From the NCBI RefSeq assembly GCF_003334405.1, contig NZ_QOWM01000018.1: DNA of 64,000 nt; one strand, written 5' to 3'. Source of the DNA: Escherichia coli (GTDB lineage Bacteria > Pseudomonadota > Gammaproteobacteria > Enterobacterales > Enterobacteriaceae). The notes under the pieces are model-generated. The model was not told the DNA's origin and made no database searches. It worked only from the letters and a program-made list of their open reading frames with translations. The first letter of the stretch is position 1. Each line of letters starts with the position of its first letter. Shown here piece by piece: positions 549 to 58,467 of this stretch. A program made the translations under genes and the position numbers.

Positions 549-576
549 GTAGGCCAGCAGCGCCAGCAATTTAATC

Positions 577-877: not shown

Positions 878-885
878 GTAGGCCA

Positions 886-1377: not shown

Positions 1378-1378
1378 C
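1360..1378 (-). repeat. shufflon sfx 19-bp site (core TCGGTGG), inverted orientation, adjacent to rci
   Basis: ccaccgaccggattggcac = reverse complement of gtgccaatccggtcggtgg. Confidence 0.7.
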
Positions 1379-1429
1379 GCTTGCAGAGAATGGTTGTTGG
1401 CATTATTTTTTGCCTCTTTTGAGGTTAGC

Positions 1430-28802: not shown

Positions 28803-28889
28803 GTTAGTTGAAAAGAGATTACCTCCGGTCAGGGCCACCAACTCTGTAACGGAACAGTAAAAAAACCGACCTCACCAGTCGGTTTTTTT
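28803..28889 (+). ncRNA. candidate ~87-nt sRNA (promoter -35 TTGCTA 28768-28773, -10 TATTAT 28791-28796; intrinsic terminator 28859-28889)
   Basis: sigma70-like promoter with 17-bp spacing, perfect terminator hairpin CCGAC..GTCGG + T7; 5' end 16/16 identical to 28616-28631. Confidence 0.35.
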
Positions 28890-29042
28890 ACATCTGTTGT
28901 TTCTCAAAATCCGCCCGACATGCCCGTCACACCGGGGAAACTCATGCTCTGAATCAGAACCAACCATCTCAACTTTGCCGTCTCCTGAAAAAACTGGCAC
29001 ATTCAGTTCGATAACTACCCATAAATACAGAGAGAAAATCCG

Positions 29043-34396: not shown

Positions 34397-34429
34397 GGCC
34401 GCGCCGGATTCTGGCGCGGCCTTTTTTTT
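34397..34429. terminator. bidirectional terminator between convergent trbC and nikB
   Basis: AGGCCGCGCC-loop-GGCGCGGCCT hairpin followed by T8. Confidence 0.6.
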
Positions 34430-37127
34430 AACCTGGAGAAGGCGGTTCCCAGCGTTTATCCTGCTCCGGCGGAGGCAGTGATGCGTCATCGTTGCTGTTC
34501 GCCGCGATATAATCGCGGTAGTAGCGTTCACTTCCTTCACGGTGATGATCCACGTCCGGTCGCGTAATCCTGTAGTCTTCGTGACCGGTACGGCCTGTCA
34601 CATTATGCCAGGCAACCATTTCAGCAAAGACCTGGTTAAATTGTTTGTCGTTTCCTTCTGGTTCAAAACCCATGCGTGGATCACGCCCGAATAATACCGG
34701 TGCAATCAAATCCAGTTTATCTGCCAGCGCATTGCGGTCATGGTGATTACGGAAAACAACCCTGTCACCATAATCCGTACAGACAAACTCTCCCGTCCGA
34801 CGGTCACGGAAACGAACACTCCCGTTCTTCTGCAGACGGGCCTCGAGATCACCGGTATTACCGTATACCGGCGTTCCGCCCGGTTCACAAAGCACGACAC
34901 AGCGGTCTGTCGTCGTTGTGCGTGACTTGTCTTTACGGCGATCGCGATAATCCCAGCCTCTCAGCTGCGATACAGCAGCCCTGTCTCCCTGAGCAGCCTG
35001 AATTTCGACCCACTGACGGTAAGAGGGTGGATACCACTTCCCGTCAGCAATAAGTTTCTGTCGCTCATCCCTGATGTCTTCTTTCAGTCTGATCAATGCC
35101 TGCATTCGCTGAACTTCTGCAATGTGATAATGCAGCTTACGTAATGCCGGATCATCGTACTGCGCACGAATGTGTGACTTCCGCAGACGGCATGCCTGAT
35201 GAATTTCCCGACAACGTTCCCCATAACGCAGATCCGGTTTACGCCATTGTTCACGCCATGCCAGATAGCGGGCACGCAGGTCAGCACGGGCCTCAGCCCT
35301 GGCTTCACGTCGCTGCCGGCGCAGCATTGGATCACGTTTACTGCTGACCCCGTACCTGTCACTGACAGCCAGCTCCGGGTTATAGCGATTTTCAGGTTGC
35401 ACCCTGTCAAACAAATCTGCTGGGGCACTCACAAAAGGTCCGGCCTGTGGCTCCGCACGCCCCAGTGTCAGATCAGGATGAATGCTGCTGGCTTTCACCG
35501 GCGTTTGCTCATGATTAAAGGCATCAACGACAACAAGCCCGTGATGTTGTTTCTGTAGCATCAGTCCCTGTTGTGCAAACAGCTCATGACAACGCTGCCA
35601 GGTAAACTCACCCTGTGTGATCATTTCTTCAATCTGAGGGCTACAATGGCTGATGCTGTATCCCCACAGACTTTCTTTGTCAGAAAACAGTTCGCGTTTG
35701 ATAGCCCCCTGCGGCCCCGTACCTGTACGCATACGGTGCCATTCTTTATCGGTCGCAGGACAGCTCTCCATACGACGACCACGGAAGCGTTCTGTTGGCG
35801 TAACCTGGCGAAAAATATCTGTTGGTACAGGCTGCCAGCCACCATCGAGTTGATTCACATTGTCGAGCGTCAGCAGTGACCATACGCTGTCAGCACGAAC
35901 GGGAGTCTGGTTATGATCATAACCGTCACAGATAACCAGGTGACCATGCTGAACACGCATCCATAATCCCGCTTCAGCCAGTGTGCGGTGAATAGCCTGG
36001 CAGTTTTCCAGCCGTCCTTCCCGTGCCATTTCCGGCAGACGTTCTCCAAGATGACGACAGGCATACTGCTGCAGACTTTCTGTTTCAGCGATTTTTTCCG
36101 GGCGAACATCAGCTGCAATGAAGTCCGGATTATAGCGTCCTGGTGCTTCCACCTGGCTGAAAATGTCTTTTGGTACTGGCGTGTAGTCACCCATTTTTTT
36201 CATGAGTTTTTCTGCACACCAGGAAGGGCCAAACGAGTCAAGCTGTACACCTTCCCTGTTGCGATCCCAGCCATCCATCACCAGAAATTTTCCGTCCATC
36301 TGAGACAGGTACAGACCATCTTCAGCAAGACGACGATGCAGGGATAACCAGTCATGTACAGGTTCACTGCGTAAACCAGCTACCGCTGTCTGCGCAACAT
36401 ACTCGCGAAAAGTTTGTTTTCTCCCGCGTGTCCACGCGTTCTGGCGATCACGTTCAACGGCGGTTTTGCGAACGATACGATTTCCCGGTGCATGGACCCA
36501 GCAACCGTTATCCGGAGCAAAACCATGCTTCAGTTCAAGCTCACGGCAGGCACGACTGAGTTTTTCCTGACTCCAGGATAACCGGTTCAGATAACCCGTT
36601 TCAGGGTGTACCCGGTTAACAGCCACATGGGCGTGCAGATTATCTGTATCAGTATGCACGGCAGAGACATACTGATGGTCGGCAAGGCCGAGTGATTTCA
36701 GCGTATGACGTACACTGTCATAAATCTGTTCCGGACGCGGGCTTTCATGTGACTGCCAGGAAAGGATGTAGTGAAAAACAGGATCAGTGTCATCTTTTGC
36801 ATAGTGTGCCTGCCGGGCAATGTACTCCATATCTGCAGCGGCAGTTTCAAGAGAAGTACAGTTATGAAAGCAGGTGACACCATAAAAGTTGACCCATTCG
36901 CAGCCGTCCTTCATGACATCAACCAGCGCCACGAATGACTCATTTCGAAGACGTGTCGCATAATCAACAAGGCGACTGAAACGGCTTCGGTGCGGTTGTT
37001 CAGCCTGCGAAGAAGAAGATAAATCCAGTTCCTCATCGGTCATGTCATCCCGGACAGAGACGTAGGATACCAGGTCTTCGAACGAAGACTTGCCGTCCCT
37101 TCTCTTTTTCGGAATGACTGCATTCAC
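34428..37127 (-). CDS. nikB: oriT relaxase NikB (MOBP family)
   Basis: 899 aa; histidine motif HTDTDNLHAHVAVNRVHPETG; adjacent to nikA and oriT. Confidence 0.85.
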   Translation of the reverse strand: MNAVIPKKRRDGKSSFEDLVSYVSVRDDMTDEELDLSSSSQAEQPHRSRFSRLVDYATRLRNESFVALVDVMKDGCEWVNFYGVTCFHNCTSLETAAADMEYIARQAHYAKDDTDPVFHYILSWQSHESPRPEQIYDSVRHTLKSLGLADHQYVSAVHTDTDNLHAHVAVNRVHPETGYLNRLSWSQEKLSRACRELELKHGFAPDNGCWVHAPGNRIVRKTAVERDRQNAWTRGRKQTFREYVAQTAVAGLRSEPVHDWLSLHRRLAEDGLYLSQMDGKFLVMDGWDRNREGVQLDSFGPSWCAEKLMKKMGDYTPVPKDIFSQVEAPGRYNPDFIAADVRPEKIAETESLQQYACRHLGERLPEMAREGRLENCQAIHRTLAEAGLWMRVQHGHLVICDGYDHNQTPVRADSVWSLLTLDNVNQLDGGWQPVPTDIFRQVTPTERFRGRRMESCPATDKEWHRMRTGTGPQGAIKRELFSDKESLWGYSISHCSPQIEEMITQGEFTWQRCHELFAQQGLMLQKQHHGLVVVDAFNHEQTPVKASSIHPDLTLGRAEPQAGPFVSAPADLFDRVQPENRYNPELAVSDRYGVSSKRDPMLRRQRREARAEARADLRARYLAWREQWRKPDLRYGERCREIHQACRLRKSHIRAQYDDPALRKLHYHIAEVQRMQALIRLKEDIRDERQKLIADGKWYPPSYRQWVEIQAAQGDRAAVSQLRGWDYRDRRKDKSRTTTTDRCVVLCEPGGTPVYGNTGDLEARLQKNGSVRFRDRRTGEFVCTDYGDRVVFRNHHDRNALADKLDLIAPVLFGRDPRMGFEPEGNDKQFNQVFAEMVAWHNVTGRTGHEDYRITRPDVDHHREGSERYYRDYIAANSNDDASLPPPEQDKRWEPPSPG

Positions 37128-37137: not shown

Positions 37138-37470
37138 TCAACCTTCCATTAACTGTTTACGCAATGTATTTGTAAGTTCGGTTATGGCAACAAGCACTTC
37201 TGCGTATTCCTTGTCACCGGTTCTTTTTCCCTGAACAAACAGATGCTTCTGCATCCTTCCCAGTCTCATTAACTCCTTCAGAAAAGCATCATCTGTACGG
37301 GAGTTAATTCGCTTATTCAGTGCTGCATTTCGGATGTAAGCAGATACAGTAAGTCCGGAATCTTCAGCTTTTTTCCTGATGGTTTCATCCTCAACAGGAG
37401 AGAATCTGAGTGTCCTGACAACTGTCTTTTGCCGTACCTCACTTTTCTTTCTTACCGCACTATCACTCAC
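37138..37470 (-). CDS. nikA: relaxosome accessory protein NikA (ribbon-helix-helix)
   Basis: 110 aa from GTG 37470 with AAGGAG RBS; sequence VSDSAVRKKSEVRQKTVVRTLRFSPVEDE. Confidence 0.8.
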   Translation of the reverse strand: MSDSAVRKKSEVRQKTVVRTLRFSPVEDETIRKKAEDSGLTVSAYIRNAALNKRINSRTDDAFLKELMRLGRMQKHLFVQGKRTGDKEYAEVLVAITELTNTLRKQLMEG

Positions 37471-37509
37471 TTCAGGCTCCTTACGGGGTGTCGGGGCGAA
37501 GCCCTGACC

Positions 37510-37570
37510 AGATGGCAATTGTAATAGCGTCGCGTGTGACGGTATTACAATTGCACATCCTGTCCCGTTT
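37510..37570 (+). promoter_or_regulatory. oriT: origin of transfer oriT: inverted repeat 37516-37526/37543-37553 and nick-region motif CACATCCTGT at 37554-37563
   Basis: CAATTGTAATA-N16-TATTACAATTG followed by ATCCTG, directly upstream of nikA. Confidence 0.7.
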
Positions 37571-37703
37571 TTCAGGCCATTATAGCCTGTTATTTTTGTG
37601 CATCATAGTCTTATGCAGACGGCAGAGGCAGGGCGCAGCCCTGCCAGGAGGCAGTTTTTGATGATAAAATCAGACTTCAACATGAAACGGAGAGAAAGTG
37701 CCA

Positions 37704-38039
37704 ATGGCTTCTAAAAAATTTTACTCAGATGATGACATCCAGCTGGCAAAAGCTGCCTTATCGGAATTGCCGGACCTCACCGCTCAACGGAAAACATTGC
37801 GTGATTTTCTTGATGCCATTCGTGATGACATCATTGTCCTGGTAAGGACAAAGGGTTATACACTGGCAGATGTTCGTGACACGCTCAAAAATGCAGGGTA
37901 TGAAGTAGGAGAGAAGGCACTTCGTGACATTATTCGGGAAGCAGAATCGAAAAAACCATCCCGCCGTTCTTCCTCTAAAACAGCACCTAAAAAGACAGAT
38001 TCAGCCAGGAAAGATGGCATCGATATGAACAACAATTGA
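37704..38039 (+). CDS. hypothetical protein with Lys/Arg-rich C-terminus
   Basis: 111 aa from ATG 37704, GGAGAG RBS; palindrome TGTGACAATGTCACA right after stop. Confidence 0.45.
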   Translation: MASKKFYSDDDIQLAKAALSELPDLTAQRKTLRDFLDAIRDDIIVLVRTKGYTLADVRDTLKNAGYEVGEKALRDIIREAESKKPSRRSSSKTAPKKTDSARKDGIDMNNN

Positions 38040-38124: not shown

Positions 38125-38973
38125 TCAGACTCGTGGCGGCAATGAACCAGGATAATGCCGTGCAATAATATCATTCAGTTTTTCAACAAGGTCAGGACGC
38201 TTAAAGACAATGTGTACGGTCCCTTTCTGGTAGCCACGCACCGTAAAATATTCCCCTTCTAACAGCTTACCGACATTGTCGCCGTTCCCGAGAAATTCAC
38301 CATACTGCGCCCCGATGCTGCTCCGGAAGTCAGGAACGTTGCGCCCCTCCAGCAGATAAAACGGACGTACCAGGTCATCCAGTGCCTCTCGTCCGCTGCA
38401 GTCCAGCGTCACACGCCCGTTACTCCAGCGGTACAGCAGGTTTTCAATAATGATTTTCTTGCCCAGACGGCATGGATTGTTGGTTCTGTAATCCCATGAC
38501 AGTTTCCTGTAGACATCAATCAGTCCCTGTTCAAATGTCTGCATCTTACTGGCATTCAGATGGCGAAAAGTTGCCAGCACATTGTCCAGGGTGATTTCAG
38601 GACAGGTGTCGCTCATCAGCTGGCTGTTCCACTCATCACGCTGGCATGAACTCATGAAGGTGTACATCCCCGTATCCGTCATCAGGCGGTCCCAGATTTT
38701 ACGGTCGGCAAGACGGGTGATATTCCTTTTCACTTCTTCCGGTTTATCCATGCACCGAATGGAGTCGGTCACGCAGTCTTCAAAACCGTAAAGAAAAATA
38801 TCACCTGACGCATCAAGCAGAATCCTGCGCGCTGTCGCCAGGCATTCCATCGCCTGCATGAACAGTGCAATACCTTCGTTACGCTGCGCGATGATGCGGT
38901 CGATGGCCACAGACGGAATAACATCTGTCGTGCCGGCAGTATTCAGGTCAGCAGTGGGTAAAGTCTGATTCAT
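38125..38973 (-). CDS. hypothetical leading-region protein (oriT-proximal, first minus-strand gene to enter the recipient)
   Basis: 282 aa from ATG 38973 with GAGGAGA RBS; no motif recognised. Confidence 0.6.
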   Translation of the reverse strand: MNQTLPTADLNTAGTTDVIPSVAIDRIIAQRNEGIALFMQAMECLATARRILLDASGDIFLYGFEDCVTDSIRCMDKPEEVKRNITRLADRKIWDRLMTDTGMYTFMSSCQRDEWNSQLMSDTCPEITLDNVLATFRHLNASKMQTFEQGLIDVYRKLSWDYRTNNPCRLGKKIIIENLLYRWSNGRVTLDCSGREALDDLVRPFYLLEGRNVPDFRSSIGAQYGEFLGNGDNVGKLLEGEYFTVRGYQKGTVHIVFKRPDLVEKLNDIIARHYPGSLPPRV

Positions 38974-39014
38974 CACATTGTCTCCTCATCGTCACGACTG
39001 CCGGGTCAGCCAGG

Positions 39015-39330
39015 TCATCTCCCGGAGGAGCGAAGCTCCTTCTGCCGTCCGGGTCTTCGGGGATTTCCCCGCAGTGGACCTTTCCGACGGGGGACGCTCA
39101 CCACGTCACGGGGCAGTTGTCCGGGGGCAGACGCAAAAGTTTTTGACGCCTGCGGCAAAAAGTTTTGTGGCTGGTACATCTCTCCCCTGGATGACTGAAA
39201 CGGGATGTGGTCGTGTATGTACCCCCGGAAAGTCCGTCTGCGGAGAACGGGCCGCAGGGCGGCGGCAGGCAGGCAGAGAGAACTGCGCCATCAGGCGCAG
39301 TGGCCTTACACACCGTAAGGTGTGCAGGGA
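39015..39330. promoter_or_regulatory. structured repeat family 1, copy A (Frpo/ssi-like single-strand promoter candidate), truncated
   Basis: aligns with 41880-42375 and 48225-48728; lies 5' of the minus-strand gene 38125-38973. Confidence 0.55.
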
Positions 39331-39450
39331 GCGCCGCATCCGGCGCGACCGGAGAAAACCGACGGCACAACAACGGCATGCGGTGGTCACTGGTACACCA
39401 CTCCCGCACAGGTGAAAACAGAGAAAACCGCACGACATCTACAACTAAAA

Positions 39451-39552
39451 AAAGTGAAATTTCTTCACTTTTTTACACTTATTTATTGCGTTGATTTGGT
39501 GATTGTGATGATAAAATAAAGTGAAGTTTTTTCACTTTTTCAAAGGTGTTTT
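39451..39552 (+). promoter_or_regulatory. promoter flanked by two palindromic operators AAAGTGAA-N6-TTCACTTT
   Basis: palindromes at 39451-39471 and 39518-39540; -35 TTGATT 39491-39496. Confidence 0.5.
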
Positions 39553-39804
39553 ATGACCGGCTGGGAACTGCGAATCTGGCGAAAAAGCATGCTCTGGTCA
39601 CGCGAAAAAGCGGCCAGAGAATTTGGCGTGACACAGAGAACATGGCACGCCTGGGAAAATGCGGATCAGGTGGATGTCACCGTCTGGAGGACCACCCAGG
39701 CACTTTCAGTCCGTGACCTGCTGCCTCACATGCAGGGGATGCGCAAGGCAGATATCATCAGGCGTCTGGAAAATGAACTGGGGGAAACGGCAGAGGATGT
39801 GTGA
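39553..39804 (+). CDS. small helix-turn-helix (XRE/Cro-like) DNA-binding protein
   Basis: 83 aa; HTH-like segment WSREKAAREFGVTQRTWHAWENA; only plus-strand gene in the leading region. Confidence 0.55.
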   Translation: MTGWELRIWRKSMLWSREKAAREFGVTQRTWHAWENADQVDVTVWRTTQALSVRDLLPHMQGMRKADIIRRLENELGETAEDV

Positions 39805-41394: not shown

Positions 41395-41829
41395 TCATTT
41401 CGGACAGCGACGCAGTGCCAGCGCGAGCGCTTTCATCTTCCAGCCTTCCGGCGTGCGGTACATCACCTTCCAGTAGCCGTCGATGAACACATAATGGAAG
41501 CGCACCTCTTCAGTGCTTTCAGTGGCAATAGCTTCCCTGAAAGAACGGTACTCACGCGCCTCACTGTCCATCCGGAAACCACTGTCACGTCCGTAATAAG
41601 CCGTCACACCGTCCACCGGGTTCTGAAGCGTATGCCCGGCGGGTTTGTCGCAACGGGGACCGAGGCAACGGATATCACCGTGTTCAACCAGGGCTTCGGC
41701 CTGCTGACCGGTGGCATAGTGGGTATGCAGGATGCGACCGTTCCAGGTCGGCTCACCGTGCAGGTGGCAGTAAACGGTACGGAACACCCCGTCGCGGCAA
41801 AAAACGGAAATCGTGCTGCTGACAGTCAT
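41395..41829 (-). CDS. hypothetical leading-region protein
   Basis: 144 aa, AAGGAGA RBS, immediately 3' of repeat copy B. Confidence 0.55.
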   Translation of the reverse strand: MTVSSTISVFCRDGVFRTVYCHLHGEPTWNGRILHTHYATGQQAEALVEHGDIRCLGPRCDKPAGHTLQNPVDGVTAYYGRDSGFRMDSEAREYRSFREAIATESTEEVRFHYVFIDGYWKVMYRTPEGWKMKALALALRRCPK

Positions 41830-41879: not shown

Positions 41880-42375
41880 CCGGAGGGGCGAAAGCCCCTT
41901 CTGCCGTCCACTTCTTCGGGGTTTCTCCCCGCAGTGGACCTTTCCGATGGGGCGTCCGTCACCACGTCACGGGGCAGCTGTCCGGGGGCGGACGCAAAAT
42001 TTTTTGCCGGGTTTATGGCTAAAAATTTTGTGGACGGTATATCTTCCCCTGGACTGCTGAAACGGGATGTGGTTACTCCAGCCCCCGGAAAGTCCACAGC
42101 GGGAAACAGGCCGCAGGGGTGGCGGCGGAAGGGTTGACTGCGCCATCAGGCGCAGTTGCCTTACACACCGTCAGGTGTGCAGGGAGCGCCGTTTCCGGCG
42201 CGACAGGGGCGGCGCGACCGGAACGGTCGCTGCAAGCCTGGTTTTTCAGACATCGGACCGTAGCGGCAGCCCGAAACCGCGCCAGCGGGTTCGGCGGAGA
42301 CTGGCGGGTGCGCCAGCAGCTGCCTGTCGGAGTCGGGCCTGACGACCGGATGCCGCCAGGCAGCCGGGAGCCGAA
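41880..42375. promoter_or_regulatory. structured repeat family 1, copy B (Frpo/ssi-like single-strand promoter candidate)
   Basis: ~500 bp, near-identical to 48225-48728; many internal hairpins (CTGCGCCATCAGGCGCAG, CACACCGTCAGGTGTG). Confidence 0.6.
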
Positions 42376-42557
42376 GGTGTCCCCGCCTCCGGAAATCAGA
42401 ACAACAGAAACGACATAACAGAAAAATGCCTCACACCATGACGGGCAGGAAGGGCAGCGCCGCAGGCGCGGCCCTCCTGCATTTCAGGCAGGCGTAAGCC
42501 TGCCAGGGTTTTCCGGCGGCCTGGCAGGCCATACCCCCGCCGGAGCGGGGGAGTAAA

Positions 42558-43058
42558 TCACCGACGGAACACATGACCGTCAATAAAGGTGAAGGAGTCC
42601 AGGAATAAATCCCGCGCATACGCCTCATAGTCAAAATAGAGCGCCACCGTCTCCGGCACGTCAGCCAGCAGGCCGGTATCACTGGCGAACTCAACCGCAA
42701 AAGCCTCCTCACTGTCAGCCTCGCCCCACCAGGCATCGCGGAAGGTGTCAAAATCCGTCTCACCGGTATCATCCACCCAGAGACGATAAGCCTCTTCGCA
42801 GCCTTCATCCCGCGCCTGGCGGAAGCCTTCAACCCAGGCCCAGTTGATATGACATTCAGAGGCCATATTCCCCGGGAATCCCTCATAATCCTGAAACATC
42901 AGTTCAGGATCGGCTTCATCCTGGTGAAGAGCACGGCAGGCGGCGAAAAAGTCGCGCTCATCATCAAACGTGGTCAGGTCAAACCAGCGGCCAGCGATGC
43001 TTCCACAGTTGTATTTGTGCCAGGTTCCAACGTATACAGCAGGGGCAACAACAGACAT
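42558..43058 (-). CDS. ardA: antirestriction protein ArdA (DNA mimic)
   Basis: 166 aa from ATG 43058: [34 protein letters not shown], very acidic. Confidence 0.8.
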
Positions 43059-43085
43059 TCCCGAATCCTCCATAGTCACATGTTC

Positions 43086-43396
43086 TGCGACACCGGGCGG
43101 TGCCGTGCCTCCATAAAAGCCGGGCGATAAGGCGGGGATGCACAGGGCGCAAGGGAAGCCGCAGCCTGACGCACACGGCTGGCGGGAGTTGGAGGGTGAG
43201 ACCGCGAAATCTGAGCGGGTGAACGACCGGAAAATCACGGCAGACGGGAAGGAGGGACCGGGTGACCGCAGCGGCGAAGCGTACCCTTGCATCCCTGCCA
43301 GCCCGGCTAAGATGGAGGCACGGCACAGCCCGCACACGATACGGCGGCCACAGAGCTGAAAACCCACAAGGCCATGCCCCGCATGGCCGGGTAAAA
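43086..43396. repeat. structured repeat family 2, copy 1 (~310 bp, identical to 50040-50349)
   Basis: direct comparison of the two stretches; immediately 5' of ardA. Confidence 0.7.
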
Positions 43397-43520: not shown

Positions 43521-44117
43521 TCACCGGAGAATATCTGTGATATCCACAAGTTTTCTGTCGCGCAGCCAGTCCTGCGCTTCACGCACCACACAACTGTCCG
43601 GTTTCACCGCTTTCAGCGATGATGCCAGTCGCTTGATCAACATCACCAGTTCCCGTGTCTGTATGTCCGGCATTGTCTCCGGCGGAGCAGGGGGACTCTC
43701 ATTTCCGACGCTCATCCCATGCGCTTCCAGTGTGGCACGGACAAACCAGGCGGCATCGACCAGTTGCTGGCGAATCCAGGCCAGATCGGTATTTCTGTCA
43801 CGGGCTGCCATTCGCTCGCCCGACAGCGCCTTGCTGATATGGCTGCGCACCAGATTATCCAGGAGTGCCTGCGCTTCTTCCGGTGAAAAGCCACCTGGTA
43901 TCTCTGTGCGCAACAGCCCTTTCCTGTACAGAAGCTGCAGCAGATCAACCTGCGACCGCACAGCAACTATCAGTACATAACGGACAACATTCGCACTGGC
44001 AGTGGTTTCTGTATCATTCAGCAGTTCTTCCGAATCGTTCCCCCCGGTGTTGCAGAGCAACGGCAACAGAGGTCGCATCCACGCGGGAACCTGGTATTTT
44101 TCGTCTGATTTCATCAT
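43521..44117 (-). CDS. hypothetical leading-region protein
   Basis: 198 aa from ATG 44117, ATGA overlap with psiA stop. Confidence 0.55.
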   Translation of the reverse strand: MMKSDEKYQVPAWMRPLLPLLCNTGGNDSEELLNDTETTASANVVRYVLIVAVRSQVDLLQLLYRKGLLRTEIPGGFSPEEAQALLDNLVRSHISKALSGERMAARDRNTDLAWIRQQLVDAAWFVRATLEAHGMSVGNESPPAPPETMPDIQTRELVMLIKRLASSLKAVKPDSCVVREAQDWLRDRKLVDITDILR

Positions 44118-44833
44118 ATTACGTTCTCCAGCTTGTTCGGGATCATCCACTGCTCAAGTGCACGTACCTGTACCGGTGCACCACGACCGGCCTCACCGGC
44201 TTCAAAAATCAGCCGCCAGAGTGGTTCCTCCTGCCAGAAAAACCGGTCAAATGATGACAGTGATGGAAAACGCCCGCACCACCCCCAGAAAATCGTTTCC
44301 AGATCATGCTCCTCAACAACACCAGACCAGCGGGACAACCAGCTTCCGACCGTGGCGGGAGTATGAAACGCAAGGTCAATCTGCGCCTGAGCAAAACATG
44401 TCTGGTATTCCAGTTCCCGTCGTTCTGCCTCACGTTCCCGCTGGCGGCTGTATTTCTGCTCTGTCAGCGTGGTTTTCTGACGACGACGCTCACCTTCACG
44501 AAAAGGCACGGACGGGAACAGACGGTGCCCCGCATCGGATGGCAGGGGAAGAACACAGACTTCACCAAAACTTTCAATCAGTTTATCCACGGCAGCCAGC
44601 CACAGGAGACGGTTGCCATGAAATTCCTCCTTCGTCAGCGCAGGGGCAAAAAAGCGGAGATCGGTCAGCGAAATCCGGCGACTGCCATTCAGGCAGCGAA
44701 AGAAAGCGGTGGCATAAGGCCATGCTGAAAGTGTGCGTCCCTGACGACGACGTTGTTCTGTGACAGCCACCGCCTGCATGGCGGCCTGTTGTTCTGCGCT
44801 GAGGGGGATCAGTGCCCGTGAACGTGCGCTCAT
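44114..44833 (-). CDS. psiA: plasmid SOS-inhibition protein PsiA
   Basis: 239 aa, [18 protein letters not shown], overlaps psiB stop. Confidence 0.8.
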
Positions 44834-45267
44834 GCCTGACCTCCTTCTGCCATCAGGATATGAATGATGTCGTTAACACTGTATCCCTGCGCATCCAGTG
44901 TCGCGGCAAGCGCCAGCGTGTGACTGATAGCGACAGGCGTGAAGATATGTTGCACCTGAACGACGGCGAAAGGCTGTCCACCACCATTCACCAGAACCAG
45001 CATCCAGAGCTGAGAGACCTCTCCCGGCGAACATAATGCCAGGTGGAAACGTTCGTGGGCTGGCGTGAAACGAACCTGGACGGGGAAAAAGCCCCCGAAC
45101 TCGCTGCCATACTCCCCGTTCATCATCCAGTTAGCCGGTGCGTCCACTTCACGCATCACCTCGTGAGTGAGATTACGGCGCATATCGCTTCCCGCAGCAC
45201 GGATATCTTCATATTCCTGTGCGTTCATGGACTGCAGGGCATTCAGGGTCAGTTCAGTTTTCATCAC
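44830..45267 (-). CDS. psiB: plasmid SOS-inhibition protein PsiB
   Basis: 145 aa, [28 protein letters not shown]. Confidence 0.85.
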
Positions 45268-45318
45268 GGTATCTCCCTTGCTGCCGCCCCGTCTCCGGCG
45301 GGGCGGTGTGGTTGTTCA

Positions 45319-47277
45319 TCAGGCGGCATCAGCCAGGTTAGCGGTGTGTTCAGTGGCATCCGTCTGTGGACGTGGCGCACACATCCAGCCAGGCACCCAG
45401 CGGTTGTCTTTCATATGGAACTCTGCATGTTCAGCCGCATCGCCTTTCTTCATTTTCTCCGCGTCCCGTGCGGCACCGGACAGTCCGGCCTCATTCAGGG
45501 CTGCGATAATCTGCGGCTTTTTCAGGTGTCCGAAGAAGTTTGCTTTTGTCGGCTGCCACCAGTCGCGCATGTGAAAACCGATGGCGCTCTCCAGCGTGTC
45601 CAGCGGGCTGCGTGACGTGTGACCACACTCACGGGTCTGGACACCGTTAAGGCTGCACGCGGTGCAGAAACTGAGCAGGGATAACAGCACCTCCTGACTG
45701 AGTGACAGGAACGTCGTCATGTCCCGTGACCATCCCTCCGGTAACAGGGCCGCAAGACGGGCTTTTTCTGCCATCATCGACAGGAATGCGGCACCTTCCT
45801 TCCCTGACGGCGCATCGCTGGTCAGCGAATAATGTTTACATTCCAGGCTGATTTGTGCTGGTTTACTGTACGCTCCGCTGCCAAACACATTCAGGCAGAG
45901 CGTCCACGCCAGCAGTGCCAGAGATTTGTCCGGTTGCTGCATCAGTGCCGCCTGGACTGCCAGCGTGCGTTCGGAAGACATTTTCGTCAGCAGTGGCAGA
46001 CTGATTTCCTCCACTGATGCTTTCTCCTGCACCTGTTCCGTGCGGTCAGCGTCGTCAGCAGCGTCATCTTCACTGCGCAACTGCACACCACGCTGGACAC
46101 ACACATTACCGTAACGCCAGGACACCACCACACCGCTTCCGGCACGCATCTCCGGCGTCCACGCCCTGACCTTCGCCATGCAGCGCATCAGCTTCATTTC
46201 TGCTTCCAGCAGGTCGGATTCCTCACACTGGTTTTCCAGCGCGTCGTAACGCGTCATCAGTTCGTTCAGGCGTTCTTCTTCCGCCTCCGTCAGCACCGCT
46301 TCCGGCTCCGGCAGACAGCGGTATGTTCCGGCATCCTCACGGCACTCACCGACAGGCTCCATGCGCCCGGCGCACCATTCCCAGCCTTCGGCTTCCCGAA
46401 GGTGTTCAGCGACAGCCTGGAGTTTTTCCAGCAGGGCAGCATCGAGTGCCACGCAGTCCACATAGCCACCCTCGTCGTCGCTGAACAAATCGGTGCGCAG
46501 TTCATCTGGCGAGAAGGCATCAGCCCCCACGAAGCGGAATTTACTGTTCCCTGCCACCGCCACTTCACTTTCGGTCACCAGACGACGAATGGTCTGCACT
46601 TCCGGTTTACCGCCCCATCCCGACTGACAGGCGGCTTCAAACACCTGCACCTGACGCGCGGTGTCGTTCTCCAGCGCCAGCGCTTGACAGTGTTCGGTGG
46701 TGATGCGGTCTTCTGCCAGCGCATCGAGGATGACAGGCGCAAGGTCTGCCAGTTTCAGCATTCGCTGAACGTGGCGGGGTGAATAGCCCAGCAGGTCGCC
46801 AATCTGCGCAGATGTTTTGCCTTCCTGCGCCAATGCGCGGAATCCGGCAATCTGTTCGGCAGGGTGCATATCCCGACGATGACCGTTCTCGGTCATCGAT
46901 GCGGCAGTCGCCAGTTCCTGCGGGATGACCTTCACACGGACAGGCCAGTCAGCCGGAAGGATGTTGCGCTCTGCCAGCATGTTGAGTGCAGCCAGTCGGC
47001 GACCACCTGCGGCGACACCGTAACGGTCACCAGGCAGGGTATGCACGACCAGATTCTGCAACAGGCCAACGCCCTTAATGGACTCAGCCAGTTCGCTGAC
47101 GGACTCCACAGAATACGGCACCGTGCGCACATTCAGCGGTGATTTAATCAGTGAGGCCAGCGGCACGCTCACTTCCTCCGTCTGCGCCAGCAGGGCAGAC
47201 AGGGCAGTTTCCTGCGTTTTTGCAGATTTACGGCTTGCTTTGCGGGTGGTTTCTGGTTCACACTTCGTTACAGGCAT
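45319..47277 (-). CDS. ParB-like nuclease-domain protein of leading region
   Basis: 652 aa from ATG 47277; ParB N-domain motif VAAGGRRLAALNMLAE. Confidence 0.65.
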   Translation of the reverse strand: MPVTKCEPETTRKASRKSAKTQETALSALLAQTEEVSVPLASLIKSPLNVRTVPYSVESVSELAESIKGVGLLQNLVVHTLPGDRYGVAAGGRRLAALNMLAERNILPADWPVRVKVIPQELATAASMTENGHRRDMHPAEQIAGFRALAQEGKTSAQIGDLLGYSPRHVQRMLKLADLAPVILDALAEDRITTEHCQALALENDTARQVQVFEAACQSGWGGKPEVQTIRRLVTESEVAVAGNSKFRFVGADAFSPDELRTDLFSDDEGGYVDCVALDAALLEKLQAVAEHLREAEGWEWCAGRMEPVGECREDAGTYRCLPEPEAVLTEAEEERLNELMTRYDALENQCEESDLLEAEMKLMRCMAKVRAWTPEMRAGSGVVVSWRYGNVCVQRGVQLRSEDDAADDADRTEQVQEKASVEEISLPLLTKMSSERTLAVQAALMQQPDKSLALLAWTLCLNVFGSGAYSKPAQISLECKHYSLTSDAPSGKEGAAFLSMMAEKARLAALLPEGWSRDMTTFLSLSQEVLLSLLSFCTACSLNGVQTRECGHTSRSPLDTLESAIGFHMRDWWQPTKANFFGHLKKPQIIAALNEAGLSGAARDAEKMKKGDAAEHAEFHMKDNRWVPGWMCAPRPQTDATEHTANLADAA

Positions 47278-47335
47278 AATCATCCCCTTATAATTGCTTA
47301 TGTCCTGCCGGACGTTCGCGCGTCCGGCACCTCTC

Positions 47336-47608
<273 letters not shown>

Positions 47609-47626
47609 TTATCACAGTCAGGCCAG

Positions 47627-48157
47627 TCAGAACGGGATATCGTCTGAAAACCCGTAATCGTCACCCTCCGGCGGTTGCGGCTGAGGCTCCGGCTGCGCGG
47701 CCTTTCGTCCACGGCCTTTCGTTTTCGCGCCACCTTTTTTCGTGGCAGCCTCCGGCTGAGGCTGACCGCTGAACTGTGGTGTGCCGTCCGGCTGAGTCTG
47801 AGTTCCTGCGGCACGTCCCAGCATCTGCATGGTGCCCGTGGTTTTAACAAGGATTTCGGTGACGTAGCGGGTGACACCGTTGTTGTCCTCCCAGCTACGG
47901 GTGCGAAGCTGGCCTTCGATGTAGACCTGCGCGCCCTTGCGCAGATATTCACCGGCCACTTCCGCGAGCTTGTCGAACAGCACCACGCGGTGCCATTCCG
48001 TCAGTTCCTTAATTTCTCCCGTCTGTTTGTCGCGCCAGCTTTCTGACGTGGCCACCTGCAGGTTTGCCACTGCGCCCCCGTTGGGGATGTAACGGACTTC
48101 CGGATCATTGCCCAGACGCCCGACGAGGATGACCTTGTTGATACCACGTGCACTCAT
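47627..48157 (-). CDS. ssb: plasmid single-stranded DNA-binding protein
   Basis: 176 aa; OB-fold N-terminus [23 protein letters not shown], Gly/Pro/Gln-rich linker, acidic tail DDIPF. Confidence 0.9.
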
Positions 48158-48224
48158 AAGAACCTCCTGACTGAAAGATGTGAGATAAACCGGATACCGG
48201 CGACGGGACGTTCATGTGCCCCTT

Positions 48225-48728
48225 CAGAGGAGCGAAAGCTCCTCCTGCCGTCCACTTCACAGGGGTTTCTCCCCGCAGTGGACCTTTCCGATGGGGGCCC
48301 GTTTACCGCCTCACGGGACAGCTGTCCGGGGGCGGACGCAAAATTTTTTGCCGGGTTCATGGCTAAAAATTTTGTGGCCGGTGCATCTCACCCTGGACAG
48401 ATGGAACGGGAGGGGGTTACGTCTGCCCCCCGGAAAGGTCCACAGCGGGGAAACAGGCCGCAGAGGTGGCGGCAGGAGGGAAGACTGCTGCGCCATCAGG
48501 CGCAGTTTCCTCACACACCGTCAGGTGTGCAGGGAGCGCAGGTTACGGCGCGACAGAGGCGGCGCGACCGGAACGGTCGCTGCAAGCCCGGGTTTTCACG
48601 CATCGGACCGTAGCGACAGCCCGAAACCGCGCCAGCGGGTTCGGCGGAGACTGGCGGGTGCGCAAGCAGCTGCCTGTCGGAGTCGGGCCTGACGACCGGA
48701 TGCCGCCAGGCAGCCGGGAGCCGAAGTG
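48225..48728. promoter_or_regulatory. structured repeat family 1, copy C (Frpo/ssi-like single-strand promoter candidate) 5' of ssb
   Basis: ~500 bp near-identical to copy B. Confidence 0.6.
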
Positions 48729-48928
48729 GGCGCAATAAAAGACAGCCAGAAACGGTGACAGTGTCACGGAATATCACACCTGTTCCTGGCATACAGTCAT
48801 ACACTACCTTCTGACCGGAAAGCCGGGCCGGCAGCGCCGCAGGCGCTGCACCCCGCGTTTCCGGCAGGCGTCAGCCTGCCAGGGGTTTTCGCGCGGGCTG
48901 ACAGGCGGCCTCCACCGCCTGCCCTGTA

Positions 48929-49120
48929 TCACCTGTTTCTGCTGCCCTGAAGGATATAGTGACCACCGAGGAAAACCGCCTGCTGATTCACCACAAAATC
49001 GCAGATTTCATCAACAATCTGCGCAGTGGTGAGCGGTTTCTGCCCCATTTCACGACGCCGCGCATTAATCACGGCTTTGTAATTGCGCAGAATTTCGCGG
49101 GTTTCTGTGCTGATATTCAT
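48929..49120 (-). CDS. hypothetical small protein
   Basis: 63-aa ORF overlapping stop of upstream gene. Confidence 0.4.
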   Translation of the reverse strand: MNISTETREILRNYKAVINARRREMGQKPLTTAQIVDEICDFVVNQQAVFLGGHYILQGSRNR

Positions 49121-49539
49121 GACATGTGCTCCCCGTCCAGCGCCTGTAACACAACGTCCATCGCTTCGCGTTCTTCCCTGACGAATGCGTCACCGTCGCC
49201 CCCGTTCTCACTCCCGACGGCATACAGGCGCTTCATTTCACTGCCTGCCAGCGCCACCACTTTTTCCAGCATCACCGCCGGGACTGTCACCTGACGGCTG
49301 ACGCGCTTTTCTTCCATCAGTTCACGAACAACGTCGTGAACAACGCTGACATCCGCACCATGCTCAAAGGCATCGTCCAGCCGCTGCATGACGGTTTCCA
49401 GCTCATCGTCTGACAGGTTCCAGTCCTGGGCTATGTGACGCACATCCCCACGGGTCAGCACCACGGCAAAAACGCATTCACTGTCCGGCACGTCTGTATC
49501 CAGCACTTCGCGGATAATTTCTTTAACAGTACAGTACAT
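49117..49539 (-). CDS. hypothetical leading-region protein (paralog of 51256-51705)
   Basis: 140 aa; shares MY.T.EI..E...LSD.E..TV..RL.D and RQV.VP pattern with the 149-aa ORF. Confidence 0.6.
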   Translation of the reverse strand: MYCTVKEIIREVLDTDVPDSECVFAVVLTRGDVRHIAQDWNLSDDELETVMQRLDDAFEHGADVSVVHDVVRELMEEKRVSRQVTVPAVMLEKVVALAGSEMKRLYAVGSENGGDGDAFVREEREAMDVVLQALDGEHMS

Positions 49540-49585
49540 TTTCTCGTCTCCTTTACAGGGGCGGCATTGCCGCCCCGTCCGTTAA

Positions 49586-50011
49586 TCAGTCCAGAGCCGC
49601 GTAAATCGCGTTGCATTCAGGGTGAAATTCGATGTGACGCCACAACTGCGCATCGCGCATCCGGTAAAGCTGGGTCAGTCCTGCATCACCGCTGTCGTGG
49701 TACAGCCACAACTGGCGGTTAATCACAAGGGAAGTCAGAATGATGCCGCAGGCATCAGCACTCACGGTACGGTCAAACCAGTTTGCACCGTTCACTATGT
49801 GGAAACGGTCGCCATCTGGCATCATGTAGCCGCCACCGTCCGGCAGGCGGATGAAGTGCCAGAATCCGCCTTCATATTCCGGCATCATTTGTTTCGCCAG
49901 CGCGTATACAGACGCTTCGGCATACAGAAAATCCTGGCCAAACAGGTAAGGCAGAAAAGACAAACGGTCGCACTCTTCAACGTTCAGAGTGACAGGTTTC
50001 GCATATTGCAT
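49586..50011 (-). CDS. KlcA/ArdB-family antirestriction protein
   Basis: 141 aa; family-like motifs [43 protein letters not shown]. Confidence 0.65.
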
Positions 50012-50039
50012 GATGTTTTCCTCCGTTGTTCACATATTC

Positions 50040-50349
50040 CGCGACACCGGGCGGTGCCGTGCCTCCATAAAAGCCGGGCGATAAGGCGGGGATGCACAGG
50101 GCGCAAGGGAAGCCGCAGCCTGACGCACACGGCTGGCGGGAGTTGGAGGGTGAGACCGCGAAATCTGAGCGGGTGAACGACCGGAAAATCACGGCAGACG
50201 GGAAGGAGGGACCGGGTGACCGCAGCGGCGAAGCGTACCCTTGCATCCCTGCCAGCCCGGCTAAGATGGAGGCACGGCACAGCCCGCACACGATACGGCG
50301 GCCACAGAGCTGAAAACCCACAAGGCCATGCCCCGCATGGCCGGGTAAA
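50040..50349. repeat. structured repeat family 2, copy 2 (~310 bp, identical to 43086-43396)
   Basis: immediately 5' of the KlcA-like gene. Confidence 0.7.
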
Positions 50350-50428
50350 GCGGAGCCGGCGGCGACTTCCTTTGTGCTCTGTCCGGGGACCGGCAGGAAA
50401 AAGGCGGGAATTTACCCCGCCAGTGTCA

Positions 50429-51256
50429 TCATTTCCGGATTTTTGCCAGGGCATCCGCCATGCTGCGGATTTCGGTCCGGGCTTCCCGGACCACCTCCCG
50501 CAGAACACCACGGTCAAACCAGCGGCGGGGCGGTTCATCGGGTATACGCAGCACATCGCAGGCCAGCCCACTGGACAGGATATGCTCAATACAATCGCTG
50601 ACCAGGTACATTTCCACCGACGAAAAACGTGCTCCCCGGTTCACTATGGCATCGAGCACCACGGGCAGGTTTTCGTCATCTTCATCGAGCCAGCAGGGGT
50701 GATCGCTTTCCTTCACGACCAGGCGAAAGCGGCGCGTCTGGCGGGTCAGCAACGTCTGACCGGTGGTGGTCAGCGCCGCACGGATACGCCGCGCATCTTC
50801 TGCCACCTGGTAACAGATGCTTCGTACCGCATCGTGCACCGCATCAAGAACAGCCCTGATTTCGTCTTCGGTCAGCCATTCTCCGGCATACGGGAAAGAC
50901 ACCTGCGTTCCGTCTGCCGGAAGTACCGGCAGCGATTGCCACTGACTGCCGGACAGTACCAGTTCCGCCCCGGTTCCGGTCAGTCTCTGAATGGCGGAGG
51001 CCAGGAGCGGCGGCAGCACGCCGCCGTGACGGTTGATAAGTAAGGTCGCCAGCCGGGGCGCATCCAGCAGAACATAAATGCTGATCCAGCCCGGATACTT
51101 CGGGTTACGCTGGTCAACATCCGTCTCTTCCGGCCAGCCCTGCGCCAGCAGCAGGTTGCGGGCGTGACGACAAATCAGTGCGTTCAGCGTGCTGTTTTCG
51201 TTCATGATTAAGCGTTCTCCCTGTATCGCCGCCCGCAGGGCAGGCGGCGATAACAT
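50429..51256 (-). CDS. hypothetical leading-region protein
   Basis: 275 aa; start overlaps upstream stop (TGATG); alternative ATG 51205 has GGGAGAA RBS. Confidence 0.55.
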
Positions 51257-51705
51257 CAGTTGTTTTCGTGTGTGTTGTTTTTCAGCAGGCTGCGGGCCTG
51301 ATTAACCACCGCCTGACGACGGGTGACGCATTCCGGGACGGTGAGTCCGTTATCACGGGCGGCCCATTCACGCTTCCACAATGCCTGTTCAGCGGTCTGA
51401 ATCAGGGACGCCAGCAGTTCAACAGGGACGGACACCTGGCGGTTTTCGCTCACGTTGCTGATAATCTCCATCGCAGCGGCGGAAGAAATACCGGACTCAA
51501 TCCGCTGGTCTTCCGGGATGTCCTCCAGGCGCGCCAGGACAGTCCTGATTTCATGATCGGACAGGGAAATATCCATTCCGTCAGCGAGGGCCTGAATCTC
51601 TTCCGGGGACCAGACAACCAGCATCAGTGGCGTGTCTGCCGGATACTTTGCTGCCAGCTCCCGGCAGAGTATTTCGCATGTTCCGTACATACTCTCTCCC
51701 CTCAA
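51256..51705 (-). CDS. hypothetical leading-region protein (paralog of 49117-49539)
   Basis: 149 aa, ATGA overlap with upstream gene. Confidence 0.6.
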
Positions 51706-51923
51706 TCTTTGAAGCAGGAATCCAGTTCCAGAATTTCGGTATATGCCTCCATCAGGAGGCGGTTTGCGCGAAACAACGTCTGACGCACCAGACGTTCCGG
51801 CAGGGTGTCAGCATTAAAGCTGTACCGCCGCTCCATCTCATTCATGGTTGTACGCAGGTCGCACATGGCATTGGCCACCTCCGCCACTTCGGCGCGAAGT
51901 TTTTCATGTCCGGCATAGTTCAT
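51702..51923 (-). CDS. hypothetical small protein
   Basis: 73 aa, adjacent to methyltransferase stop. Confidence 0.45.
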   Translation of the reverse strand: MNYAGHEKLRAEVAEVANAMCDLRTTMNEMERRYSFNADTLPERLVRQTLFRANRLLMEAYTEILELDSCFKD

Positions 51924-52607
51924 TTACGCAGCCTCCGGCATAAACCAGTCATCATTTGCGGCCCCCTGCTGCATGGCCCGCTGTACGGCAGCCAGACGTT
52001 GCTGTCCGGCACGGTGATACTGCTCAAGCAGCTCGATACCGATATACCGGCGTCCGGACTGAAGGGCGGCCACGCAGGTTGAGCCGCTGCCTGCAAACGG
52101 GTCCAGCACAATCGCGTTCGGATGTGTGAAGCTCTCAATCAGTGGTTGCAGGCTGGTAACAGGCTTTTCCGTCGGGTGATGACGATTGCCTGAATATTTC
52201 CAGCCCAGCACGTCGGGTAATGGCTTCTGAGGCAGCGCCGGACGGCCTTTTGCCAGAACGTAGGCGCATTCGTGGCGATAACCCACATATGCGGCCTTCG
52301 ATGTGTAGTTTTTGGTGAAGACCAGGTGCCCAACCACACTGAATCCCGCATTTTTCCAGGCGGCCATAAAGCGATCGACGCGGTTCCAGCCGTAGAAGCT
52401 GACCATCAGCGCATCTTTTTTGAGTACGCGATACATTTCATTACAGGCTGGTTGCAGCCATTCATCGGTTTTATCGCCGGCGATGGTACGCCCCTGTCGG
52501 TCACGAAAACCGACGAGGTATGGCGGGTCAGTCAGTATGAAATCAATGCCGTTATCAGGAATACGCGCCATAACATCAATGCAGTTACCGAGGACAAAAC
52601 GGGACAT
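51924..52607 (-). CDS. orphan DNA methyltransferase (N6-adenine/N4-cytosine class, beta-type motif order)
   Basis: motif IV DPPY followed by motif I LDPFAGSGST; AAGGAG RBS; no adjacent restriction gene. Confidence 0.8.
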   Translation of the reverse strand: MSRFVLGNCIDVMARIPDNGIDFILTDPPYLVGFRDRQGRTIAGDKTDEWLQPACNEMYRVLKKDALMVSFYGWNRVDRFMAAWKNAGFSVVGHLVFTKNYTSKAAYVGYRHECAYVLAKGRPALPQKPLPDVLGWKYSGNRHHPTEKPVTSLQPLIESFTHPNAIVLDPFAGSGSTCVAALQSGRRYIGIELLEQYHRAGQQRLAAVQRAMQQGAANDDWFMPEAA

Positions 52608-52991
52608 AACAACACTCCTTCTTTCTCAGAGGGCACCGGGAGGGCACCCCTGTGGTGCCCGTTCCCCGCTGCCTGTGGGCTGTTCACCGCGTCCGGTAAC
52701 GGGTCAGGCCGACCGTGGAATATCGCAGCCGTCGTCTTTTTGACGGCGAGAATATGCCGCGAAAGCGGCTTGAAGGGCGTTCATCAGAAAAGGGCGACAG
52801 GCTGGCGTACACTGTCACCGACGCCAGCCGGGAGCGGTAAAAGCGCCCGTCCCGTGCCCGCCGGACGCGGGACACTGACCACAGGCAGCGTTTATGCCGC
52901 GCCGCATCAGCCGGCGCAGTAAACAGAGGAGCACGGCGACATCCTTTGTCGGAAAAGAAACGGGCGGTTGCCCGCCCGTCTCCGTCATACT

Positions 52992-53918: not shown

Positions 53919-54242
53919 GGGAATTCTCCTCTCACATGCGGCCTCCATCAGGCCGTGCCGCACCTGTTACCGGGCGACCGCATACGAATGCAGGTGCGGC
54001 CCCGAAGCCGCAGCGCGTGGAGGAGGAACGACGAAACGTGACCGGGTGAGGAGGCCGGCGACAGCGACACACTTGCATCGGATGCAGCCCGGTTAACGTG
54101 CCGGCACGGCCTGGGTAACCAGGTATTTTGTCCACAGAACCGTGCACAAAATGCTGTGGATAAGCTGGACACAGCAGCCCACAGCAGGCATACAGCCACA
54201 CACTCAGAGAATTGAGCGTTTTTTAGTCACAACAATGACATT

Positions 54243-58381: not shown

Positions 58382-58467
58382 GAGATAACCCAGGATGTTT
58401 GTTAGATACTTAAAAGATATCCATTAAAAGCCCAAAGGATACTATATGGATACCCAATAGACACACC

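Follow-up and report, generated by a model that had tools for sequence, protein, structure and literature searches.

The 64,000-nucleotide stretch of DNA analyzed here (the window) is, as judged from its nucleotide sequence, an IncI1-type conjugative plasmid, and the inverted repeats and nick motif just upstream of its nikA gene almost certainly make up an R64-type (IncI1, MOBP12) origin of transfer (oriT). The location of this oriT, the predicted position of its nick, and the predicted direction of transfer all match published work, and the biology is already known. Our direct results are the sequence elements themselves, their identity with those of plasmid R64, the conservation and covariation of the site, the gene content and coding strands around it, and a strand asymmetry in folding.

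Sequence elements at the putative oriT and identity with R64

The relaxosome genes and the elements of the site are arranged as follows.

34428..37127, minus strand: nikB, MOBP-family relaxase of 899 amino acids (NCBIfam TraI/MobA(P) relaxase, 412 bits against a cutoff of 250)
37138..37470, minus strand: nikA, ribbon-helix-helix relaxosome accessory protein of 110 amino acids (NCBIfam MobA, 121.7 bits against a cutoff of 80)
37486..37570, plus strand: predicted minimal oriT block, the stretch common to tiny Col-type plasmids without nikA or nikB
37490..37508, no strand: 8-nt inverted repeat GTCGGGGC-GAA-GCCCTGAC, with one G-T position, on the nikA side of the 17-nt repeat
37515..37554, no strand: 17-nt inverted repeat (arms 37515-37531 and 37538-37554), which includes a pair of 11-nt arms
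37554..37565, plus strand: nick region CACATCCTG/TCC, with the predicted nick (slash) between G37562 and T37563
37579..37584, minus strand: candidate -10 element, TATAAT, of a nikAB promoter, proposed from the sequence, on the leading side of the nick

The first-pass annotation had described an inverted repeat upstream of nikA with a 16-bp spacer, and the repeat is present where it was placed: the 11-nt arms CAATTGTAATA (37516-37526) and TATTACAATTG (37543-37553) are exact reverse complements of each other at a spacing of 16 nt. The repeat is longer than first described, with 17-nt arms GCAATTGTAATAGCGTC and GACGGTATTACAATTGC that differ by one mismatch and enclose a 6-nt loop, and it is the putative recognition element of NikA. 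The oriT of R64 contains a 17-bp and an 8-bp set of repeats (PMC3817090), and sites of the R64 type are defined by an imperfect 17-bp repeat and an 8-bp repeat just upstream of nikA (PMC3817090), both of which are found here. Adjacent nikA and nikB genes of the R64 type accompany them, as does the nick sequence TCCTG/TCCCG at 8 nt from the end of the 17-bp repeat at 37554. As single-stranded DNA, the plus strand from 37485 to 37575 is predicted to fold at -27.8 kcal/mol (z = -7.4). A hairpin at 37627-37645 that resembles the 8-nt repeat across the nick was rejected as a functional partner; R64 has a 1-nt deletion within it.

An alignment to R64 (NC_005014) shows that positions 37441-37574 are 100% identical to the oriT of that plasmid. 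The first difference is an A-for-G substitution at 37575, and one further substitution and a 1-nt indel fall between 37575 and 37700; counted from the start of nikA, the identity of the core extends 12 nt beyond the predicted nick, and the closest known system is this oriT with its nikAB operon, as in R64, ColIb-P9, and pESBL-EA11. R64 and the window share the same 17-nt and 8-nt repeats, the same nic 10-mer, and the same gene order, namely, trbABC, nikBA, oriT, yggA, and then the leading region. Many plasmids of E. coli, Salmonella, and Shigella match the 401 bases around the site at 100% identity, and the 25 kb to the right of it are 97 to 98% identical to the nearest IncI1 plasmids in the database, which are typed MOBP/MPF_I; the leading region of the window is thus close to those of its nearest database relatives (∼97 to 98%) but not identical to them.

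The relaxosome proteins are likewise those of R64. NikA is identical to its R64 counterpart at 110 of 110 residues, and its gene has a GTG start at 37470 with AAGGAG just upstream. NikB matches R64 NikB at 893 of 899 residues (99%), and one of the six amino acid changes lies in the histidine motif, which reads HAHV in the window and HVHV in R64 (Ala for Val). The alignment with R64 NikB identifies Tyr22 and the motif HTDTDNLHAHV, so the putative N-terminal catalytic tyrosine and the HxDxD...HxH motif of MOBP relaxases are both in place.

Conservation of the site and orphan copies

A relative of the oriT site is carried by ∼3,800 plasmid records. We aligned 13 diverged oriTs, drawn from IncI1, IncI-gamma/K1, and IncK2/Z plasmids, a Leclercia plasmid, and seven Col-type plasmids of 1.5 to 6.7 kb. 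The sequence CACATCCTGTCC is invariant in all 13, and the block of the 8-nt repeat, GGGTGTCGGG...CCCTGA, hardly varies across them. The arms of the 17-nt repeat vary yet keep their complementarity, with changes on both sides in seven pairs, pairing in 88% of cells (versus 34 to 47% in controls with slid partners), and a covariation score that was reached in none of 500 shuffles. This pattern fits an invariant relaxase target beside a specificity element that would co-evolve with NikA, and such a co-evolving element has been noted previously (PMC3817090).

The orphan copies on small plasmids match only query positions ∼43 to 133 of 37440-37640, and the extent that these plasmids have kept (∼37486-37570) is the natural delimitation of the predicted minimal oriT. 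The orphan R64-like oriTs (pEC156 and the NikA-encoding pCERC7/NTP16 group) have in common with the window a block of ∼85 bp with the invariant nick region and the 8-nt repeat, while the arms of their 17-nt repeats differ in sequence from those of the window and keep their complementarity. These plasmids lack nikB, the sampled copies also lack nikA, the nikAB promoter block, and the leading region, and they are mobilized by IncI1 helper plasmids; for one R64-like orphan oriT, mobilization by R64 was ∼1,000-fold above that of a plasmid without the site (PMC4743918).

The orphan copies also bear on whether the repeat might be a mere operator or attenuator for nikAB transcription, through which NikA would regulate its own synthesis, with no role in transfer. 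The repeat does lie between the candidate -10 element (37579-37584, minus strand) and the start of nikA, and would hence fall within the nikAB leader, and NikA belongs to the repressor-like ribbon-helix-helix fold family. However, small plasmids that have neither nikA nor nikB have kept the repeat together with the nick region and the 8-nt repeat, and an R64-like orphan site confers mobilization by R64 (PMC4743918), which makes a purely regulatory function very improbable. The repeat may nevertheless have a regulatory role alongside its putative role in transfer.

Predicted nick position, cleaved strand, and direction of transfer

Directly after the repeat lies CACATCCTGT (37554-37563), with ATCCTG at 37557-37562, as the first-pass annotation had noted, and CATCCTGT at 37556-37563 fits the MOBP nick consensus 5'-(C/T)ATCCTG(C/T)-3'. 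The nick of RP4 is classically written ATCCTG/C. MOBP relaxases require 5'-(C/T)ATCCTG(C/T)-3', and oligonucleotides carrying this motif are cleaved by them (PMC3772185); because ATCCTG, which is needed on the cleaved strand, lies on the plus strand of the window, the plus strand is the predicted substrate.

The position of the nick was taken from a curated table of nic sites determined by experiment (PMC5789077, Supplementary Table S1, where Furuya et al. 1991 is cited), which gives the R64 nic 10-mer in NC_005014 as CGGGA/CAGGA with the nick at its center. Within the window this 10-mer has a single, minus-strand match, at 37558-37567, the center of which is the bond between 37562 and 37563; it is also single in the stretch of R64 that we examined, where it lies upstream of nikA. 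In this table the 10-mer is written on the complementary strand, and the strand that is cut goes unnamed. Its entry for RP4 is CCGGG/CAGGA (PMC5789077), the complement of ATCCTG/C, and the strand printed there is for this reason the one complementary to the cleaved strand. The predicted plus-strand nick between 37562 and 37563, which had been proposed for this DNA beforehand, therefore coincides with the center of the published R64 nic, with its strand assigned from the MOBP motif. The strand rests on MOBP biochemistry and on the abstract of Furuya and Komano (1991), which reportedly locates the R64 cut 8 bp away from the 17-bp repeat, between a G and a T, and protein on the 5' end.

With the relaxase attached to the 5' end at T37563, the plus strand would be led rightward, and comparisons with two well-studied transfer systems point the same way. 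For RP4, the query was a sequence that we take to be the RP4 oriT, and IncP-1 alpha plasmids matched it at 100% identity. The IncP-1 alpha plasmid pBS228 has traI and traJ, followed by an imperfect repeat of 19 nt, 8 nt with TATCCTG at their end, the nick, and traK-traL-traM; the window has nikB and nikA, followed by the 17-nt repeat, 8 nt with CATCCTG at their end, the predicted nick, and yggA. The two layouts have in common an imperfect repeat (19 nt in RP4/RK2, 17 nt in the window) followed by 8 nt that end in YATCCTG and the nick, so that in the window, as in pBS228, the repeat lies 5' of the nick on the putatively cleaved strand at the same short distance. In both, genes for an accessory protein and a MOBP relaxase read away from oriT on the repeat side, and a divergent gene lies on the nick side. 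Beyond the nick core the two sites share no nucleotide similarity; the loop has 2 nt in RP4 and 6 nt in the window, RP4 has no adjacent 8-nt repeat, and in place of the RP4 leader operon traK-traL-traM the window has a single unrelated small gene, yggA, followed by an F-like leading region.

That leading region provides the second comparison. Positions 44258-54000 are collinear with the leading region of F, in reverse orientation, at 87 to 93% identity (87 to 95% over the gene order as a whole), and in both plasmids the order is methylase, KlcA-like gene, ssb, ParB-like gene, psiB, and psiA, all transcribed towards oriT. In NC_002483 the F nic oligonucleotide is found on the complement strand, between a gene for an SLT-domain transglycosylase and traM; given this and the reverse collinearity, the transferred strand of F is the template of its leading genes and corresponds to the plus strand of the window. 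F differs from the window in its MOBF relaxase and unrelated oriT, and ardA and the second copy of the class-2 repeat have no counterpart at that position in F.

The view that the plus strand leads rightward is thus supported by the RP4 layout, the correspondence to the transferred strand of F, and the plus-strand folding of six hairpin-rich regions to the right of the site (see below), which agree with one another and with the proposal of the first-pass annotation that the right side would enter first. Its further proposal that nikAB would enter last is, by analogy, in line with a published account in which the relaxase enters last and the anti-defense, ssb, and methylase genes of leading regions are oriented for transcription from the transferred strand (PMC11541004). 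Were the nick instead on the minus strand or elsewhere, nikAB would enter first and the ssb/psi/ard region last. The curated table could be read in this way, since it prints the nic 10-mer in the minus orientation and leaves the cut strand unnamed, and the symmetry of the inverted repeat means that the repeat alone does not fix the strand. Several observations nevertheless make this extremely improbable: the ATCCTG motif, a single-stranded substrate of MOBP relaxases, lies in the plus strand and 3' of the repeat, just as in RP4; the invariant, asymmetric block occurs only on the ATCCTG side of the repeat; the F homologues of the leading genes are templated by the F transferred strand, which corresponds to the plus strand of the window; the hairpins fold better in the plus strand; and the leading-region genes of IncI1 plasmids are switched on in the first 15 minutes of mating (PMC12672017).

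The idea that the repeat and ATCCTG are adjacent by chance is refuted by the counts, for although ATCCTG occurs 65 times in the window (both strands) and 24 of these copies fit YATCCTGY, only the copy at 37556 has a long inverted repeat ending 8 nt before the G/Y junction, no 17-nt inverted repeat with one mismatch or none arose in 20 shuffles, and the block is identical to that of R64, kept in ∼3,800 plasmid records, and covarying. In the window itself such 17-nt repeats are found at two loci, the putative oriT and a pair of shufflon recombination sites. Another copy of CATCCTGT, at 5825, was considered as a second oriT and rejected; its repeat is short (11 nt, with a 14-nt loop) and lies 10 nt away, and there is no adjacent relaxase gene.

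Leading-region genes and strand-asymmetric hairpin repeats

To the right of the predicted nick, the window contains the following genes.

37704..38039, plus strand: yggA, predicted first gene into the recipient, divergent from nikA (named from the annotation of relatives)
38125..38976, minus strand: ygfB (DUF4942), first minus-strand gene of the leading region
∼39550-39804, plus strand: small helix-turn-helix gene (named from the annotation of its closest relative)
41395-41829, minus strand: ygcA, with copy 2 of the class-1 hairpin repeat 5' of the gene
42558..43058, minus strand: ardA, anti-restriction (PHROG anti-restriction protein, E = 1.6e-29; annotation of relatives)
44114..45267, minus strand: psiA (44114-44833) and psiB (44830-45267), SOS inhibition (NCBIfam, 376 and 266 bits, both above cutoff)
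45319..47367, minus strand: yfhA, ParB-like leading-region gene
47627..48157, minus strand: ssb, plasmid encoded (NCBIfam PRK13732, 368 bits against a cutoff of 265)
49586..50011, minus strand: yfeB, KlcA-like anti-restriction (PHROG anti-restriction protein, E = 3.3e-18)
51924..52607, minus strand: orphan DNA methyltransferase, in the position of M.EcoGIX (PHROG DNA methyltransferase, E = 6.7e-63)

The ssb, psi, and ard genes had been described as lying all on the minus strand, which is true of these genes; it does not extend to the whole region, in which yggA and the small helix-turn-helix gene are on the plus strand.

Hairpin-forming repeats lie upstream of the minus-strand operons.

39089..39352, plus strand: class-1 (Frpo/ssi-like) hairpin repeat, copy 1, 5' of ygfB (repeat families D4 and D5)
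41883..42376, plus strand: class-1 hairpin repeat, copy 2, 5' of ygcA (plus strand folds 19.1 kcal/mol better)
43076..43375, plus strand: class-2 hairpin repeat, 5' of ardA (99% identical to 50030-50329)
48227..48726, plus strand: class-1 hairpin repeat, copy 3, 5' of ssb (plus strand folds 23.3 kcal/mol better)
50030..50329, plus strand: class-2 hairpin repeat, 5' of the KlcA-like gene
52608..52991, plus strand: structured intergenic region, candidate class-3 single-stranded DNA (ssDNA) promoter, 5' of the methylase gene (minimum free energy of -109.4 kcal/mol over 384 nt)

In each of the six hairpin-rich intergenic regions upstream of leading operons the plus strand has the more stable fold, with an advantage of 2.3 to 23.3 kcal/mol over the minus strand; this advantage is 16.3 kcal/mol for the region 38977-39500 and only 2.3 kcal/mol for the class-3 candidate, and the window-wide control for the fold difference averaged +0.6 ± 5.9 per 500 nt. 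For the long hairpin 5' of ssb, the predicted fold has -167.8 kcal/mol (z = -10.2). The most structured 500-nt segments sampled were all in the leading region, and five of six overlap the hairpin repeats. Similarity to the Frpo region of F, which lies upstream of ssb, was found for 41975-42247 and 48318-48600, which match F 58174-58480 at 80 to 94% identity (81 to 94% for copy 3) and also match a second F copy at 63558-63630; these are partial repeat matches only, in which short stretches of 68 to 83 nt of the class-1 repeats correspond to F at 80 to 94%. The two 300-nt class-2 copies match F upstream of its KlcA-like gene, the copy 5' of ardA at 95% identity; the matching stretch upstream of ardA measures 354 nt and is separate from the collinear segment.

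In the IncI1 plasmid pESBL, the expression of six leading operons rises by as much as 500-fold in the first 15 minutes of mating, and each is preceded by a hairpin, with transcription start sites determined by 5' RACE (PMC12672017). From RNA-seq and 5' RACE, the same study reports that RNA polymerase starts on the single strand at these six ssDNA promoters (PMC12672017). The pESBL hairpins fall into three classes, of which class 1 comprises the Frpo-like ssi1 to ssi3, class 2 the hairpins 5' of ardA and klcA, and class 3 the one 5' of M.EcoGIX (PMC12672017), and the leading regions of the IncI family had been reported to contain three Frpo-like repeats (PMC3817090). The ssDNA-promoter-like repeats that the first-pass annotation placed 5' of the operons are indeed present, form hairpins, and are partly homologous to Frpo, and, like Frpo/ssi elements, they put a long hairpin in the putatively transferred strand 5' of genes that this strand would template; their promoter activity is predicted. 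In the region of the ssb hairpin (48158-48800), a simple consensus scan gave no -35/-10 pair. Rfam has no family for the oriT or for the hairpin repeats; its only matches in the window were sok and AgrB, located elsewhere.

Discussion

The course of initiation is established for R64, and we infer from sequence identity that it applies to the window; nicking, covalent linkage, the roles of the repeats, and ssDNA promoter activity are taken here from the literature and from homology. NikA would bind the nick-proximal arm of the 17-nt repeat and position NikB, which would cut the plus strand at G37562/T37563 in CATCCTG/T and remain joined through Tyr22 to the new 5' end. This end would then pilot the plus strand into the recipient, with the DNA to the right of 37563 entering first, so that the order of entry would be yggA, ygfB, ardA, psiAB, ssb, the KlcA-like gene, and the methylase gene. 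Because these leading genes, from ygfB onwards, are on the minus strand, the incoming plus strand would be their template, and the plus-strand hairpins upstream of each operon may serve as single-strand promoters before the complementary strand is synthesized. Both nikA and nikB and finally the 8-nt and 17-nt repeats would arrive last, and the re-formed hairpin and nick region would let NikB rejoin the ends.

In E. coli and Salmonella, IncI1 plasmids are among the principal vehicles of extended-spectrum beta-lactamase genes. The location of the oriT and the order of entry explain the placement of the anti-restriction, SOS-inhibition, and ssb genes in such a plasmid, and the location of the oriT also explains how small plasmids with copies of the 85-bp site hitchhike on IncI1 plasmids. 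For the window, the value of the analysis is one of annotation only, in that the oriT, nick, transferred strand, and leading region are now fixed; it adds nothing beyond what work on R64, ColIb-P9, and pESBL had established.

We consider it possible, though doubtful, that the nikAB promoter lies on the leading side of the nick and that yggA perhaps encodes a TraK-like accessory factor of the oriT. In its position yggA corresponds to traK of RP4, and its coding sense is that of the transferred strand. YggA had no match to any Pfam, PHROG, or NCBIfam family, and a TraK-like role is for this reason unsupported. A consensus promoter scan reported no minus-strand promoter for nikA and no good -35 element for the TATAAT at 37579-37584, which sits in the loop of a small hairpin (37573-37589). 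The block containing TATAAT is nearly identical in four nikA-bearing plasmids of the I complex, divergent in the Leclercia plasmid, and absent from the plasmids with orphan oriTs. If the nikAB promoter does lie there, the cut between 37562 and 37563 would part nikAB from it, and the relaxosome genes would be expressible in the recipient only after recircularization and double-strand synthesis.

Transfer origins in the window and in small plasmids

An R64-type oriT of ~85 bp is carried, without nikA or nikB, by many tiny plasmids, represented in our alignment by Col-type plasmids of 1.5 to 6.7 kb (L008 to L014) that were compared with positions 37486-37570 of the window. The repeat arms of these origins match differing I-complex subtypes; those of a 1902-bp ST131 plasmid are of the IncK2/Z type, and those of a 1549-bp plasmid are the same as in the O145 plasmid pRM9873, a pattern which suggests that each tiny plasmid may be tuned to a different helper plasmid. 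The NikB relaxase encoded here has only six differences from that of R64, one of which falls inside the conserved histidine motif, where codon 166 (36630-36640) specifies Ala in place of Val (NLHAHVAVN versus NLHVHVAVN).

Two small G+C-rich hairpins lie just beyond the nick on the transferred strand, each with a run of T after it:

37573-37589 (+), hairpin whose loop contains a candidate nikAB -10 hexamer
37627-37654 (+), hairpin resembling the 8-nt oriT repeat; its R64 counterpart is imperfect

A second CATCCTGT occurs at 5825, within an element (5790-5832, plus strand) located in the gap between the open reading frames at 4907-5491 and 5886-6344 (traH). An inverted repeat with one mismatch precedes the motif. 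We rejected this element as an oriT because the repeat is only 11 nt long, has a 14-nt loop, and stands 10 nt away, and because no relaxase gene adjoins it; a terminator or a hairpin formed by chance is the probable explanation.

Repeats and first gene of the leading region

The class-2 hairpin repeats (43076-43375 and 50030-50329) share 99% identity across 300 nt despite the 7 kb between them, while the genes flanking them are just 87 to 95% identical to those of F, and this disparity suggests that recent gene conversion may have acted between the two copies. Recombination between them could readily delete the ardA-psi-ssb block, and deletion between Frpo-like repeats has already been described (PMC3817090).

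Transfer brings yggA (37704-38039, plus strand) into the recipient ahead of any other gene; it had no match in Pfam, PHROG, or NCBIfam. Its relatives in RefSeq are annotated as [quoted passage not shown] a name that was almost certainly transferred by mistake from a mobilization protein named MobC.

Shufflon and antisense RNAs

The left end of the window (1-2584) is a shufflon:

3-15, 24-36, 536-548, 865-877, 886-898, and 1366-1378 (both orientations), the six sfx core sites (GTGCCAATCCGGT)
1394-2584, rci recombinase open reading frame, with sfx copies directly upstream

Two pairs of core copies are arranged head to head with a spacing of only ~8 nt, and the sfx pair at 859-904 forms the only 17-nt inverted repeat in the window besides that of oriT.

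Rfam matches placed two antisense RNAs between excA and trbA:

28804-28891 (+), AgrB antisense RNA, 58.5 bits
29516-29673 (-), sok antitoxin RNA, 134 bits

Related plasmids have annotated type I toxin genes, DinQ-like (dqlB) and Hok/Gef (pnd), to which these RNAs correspond.
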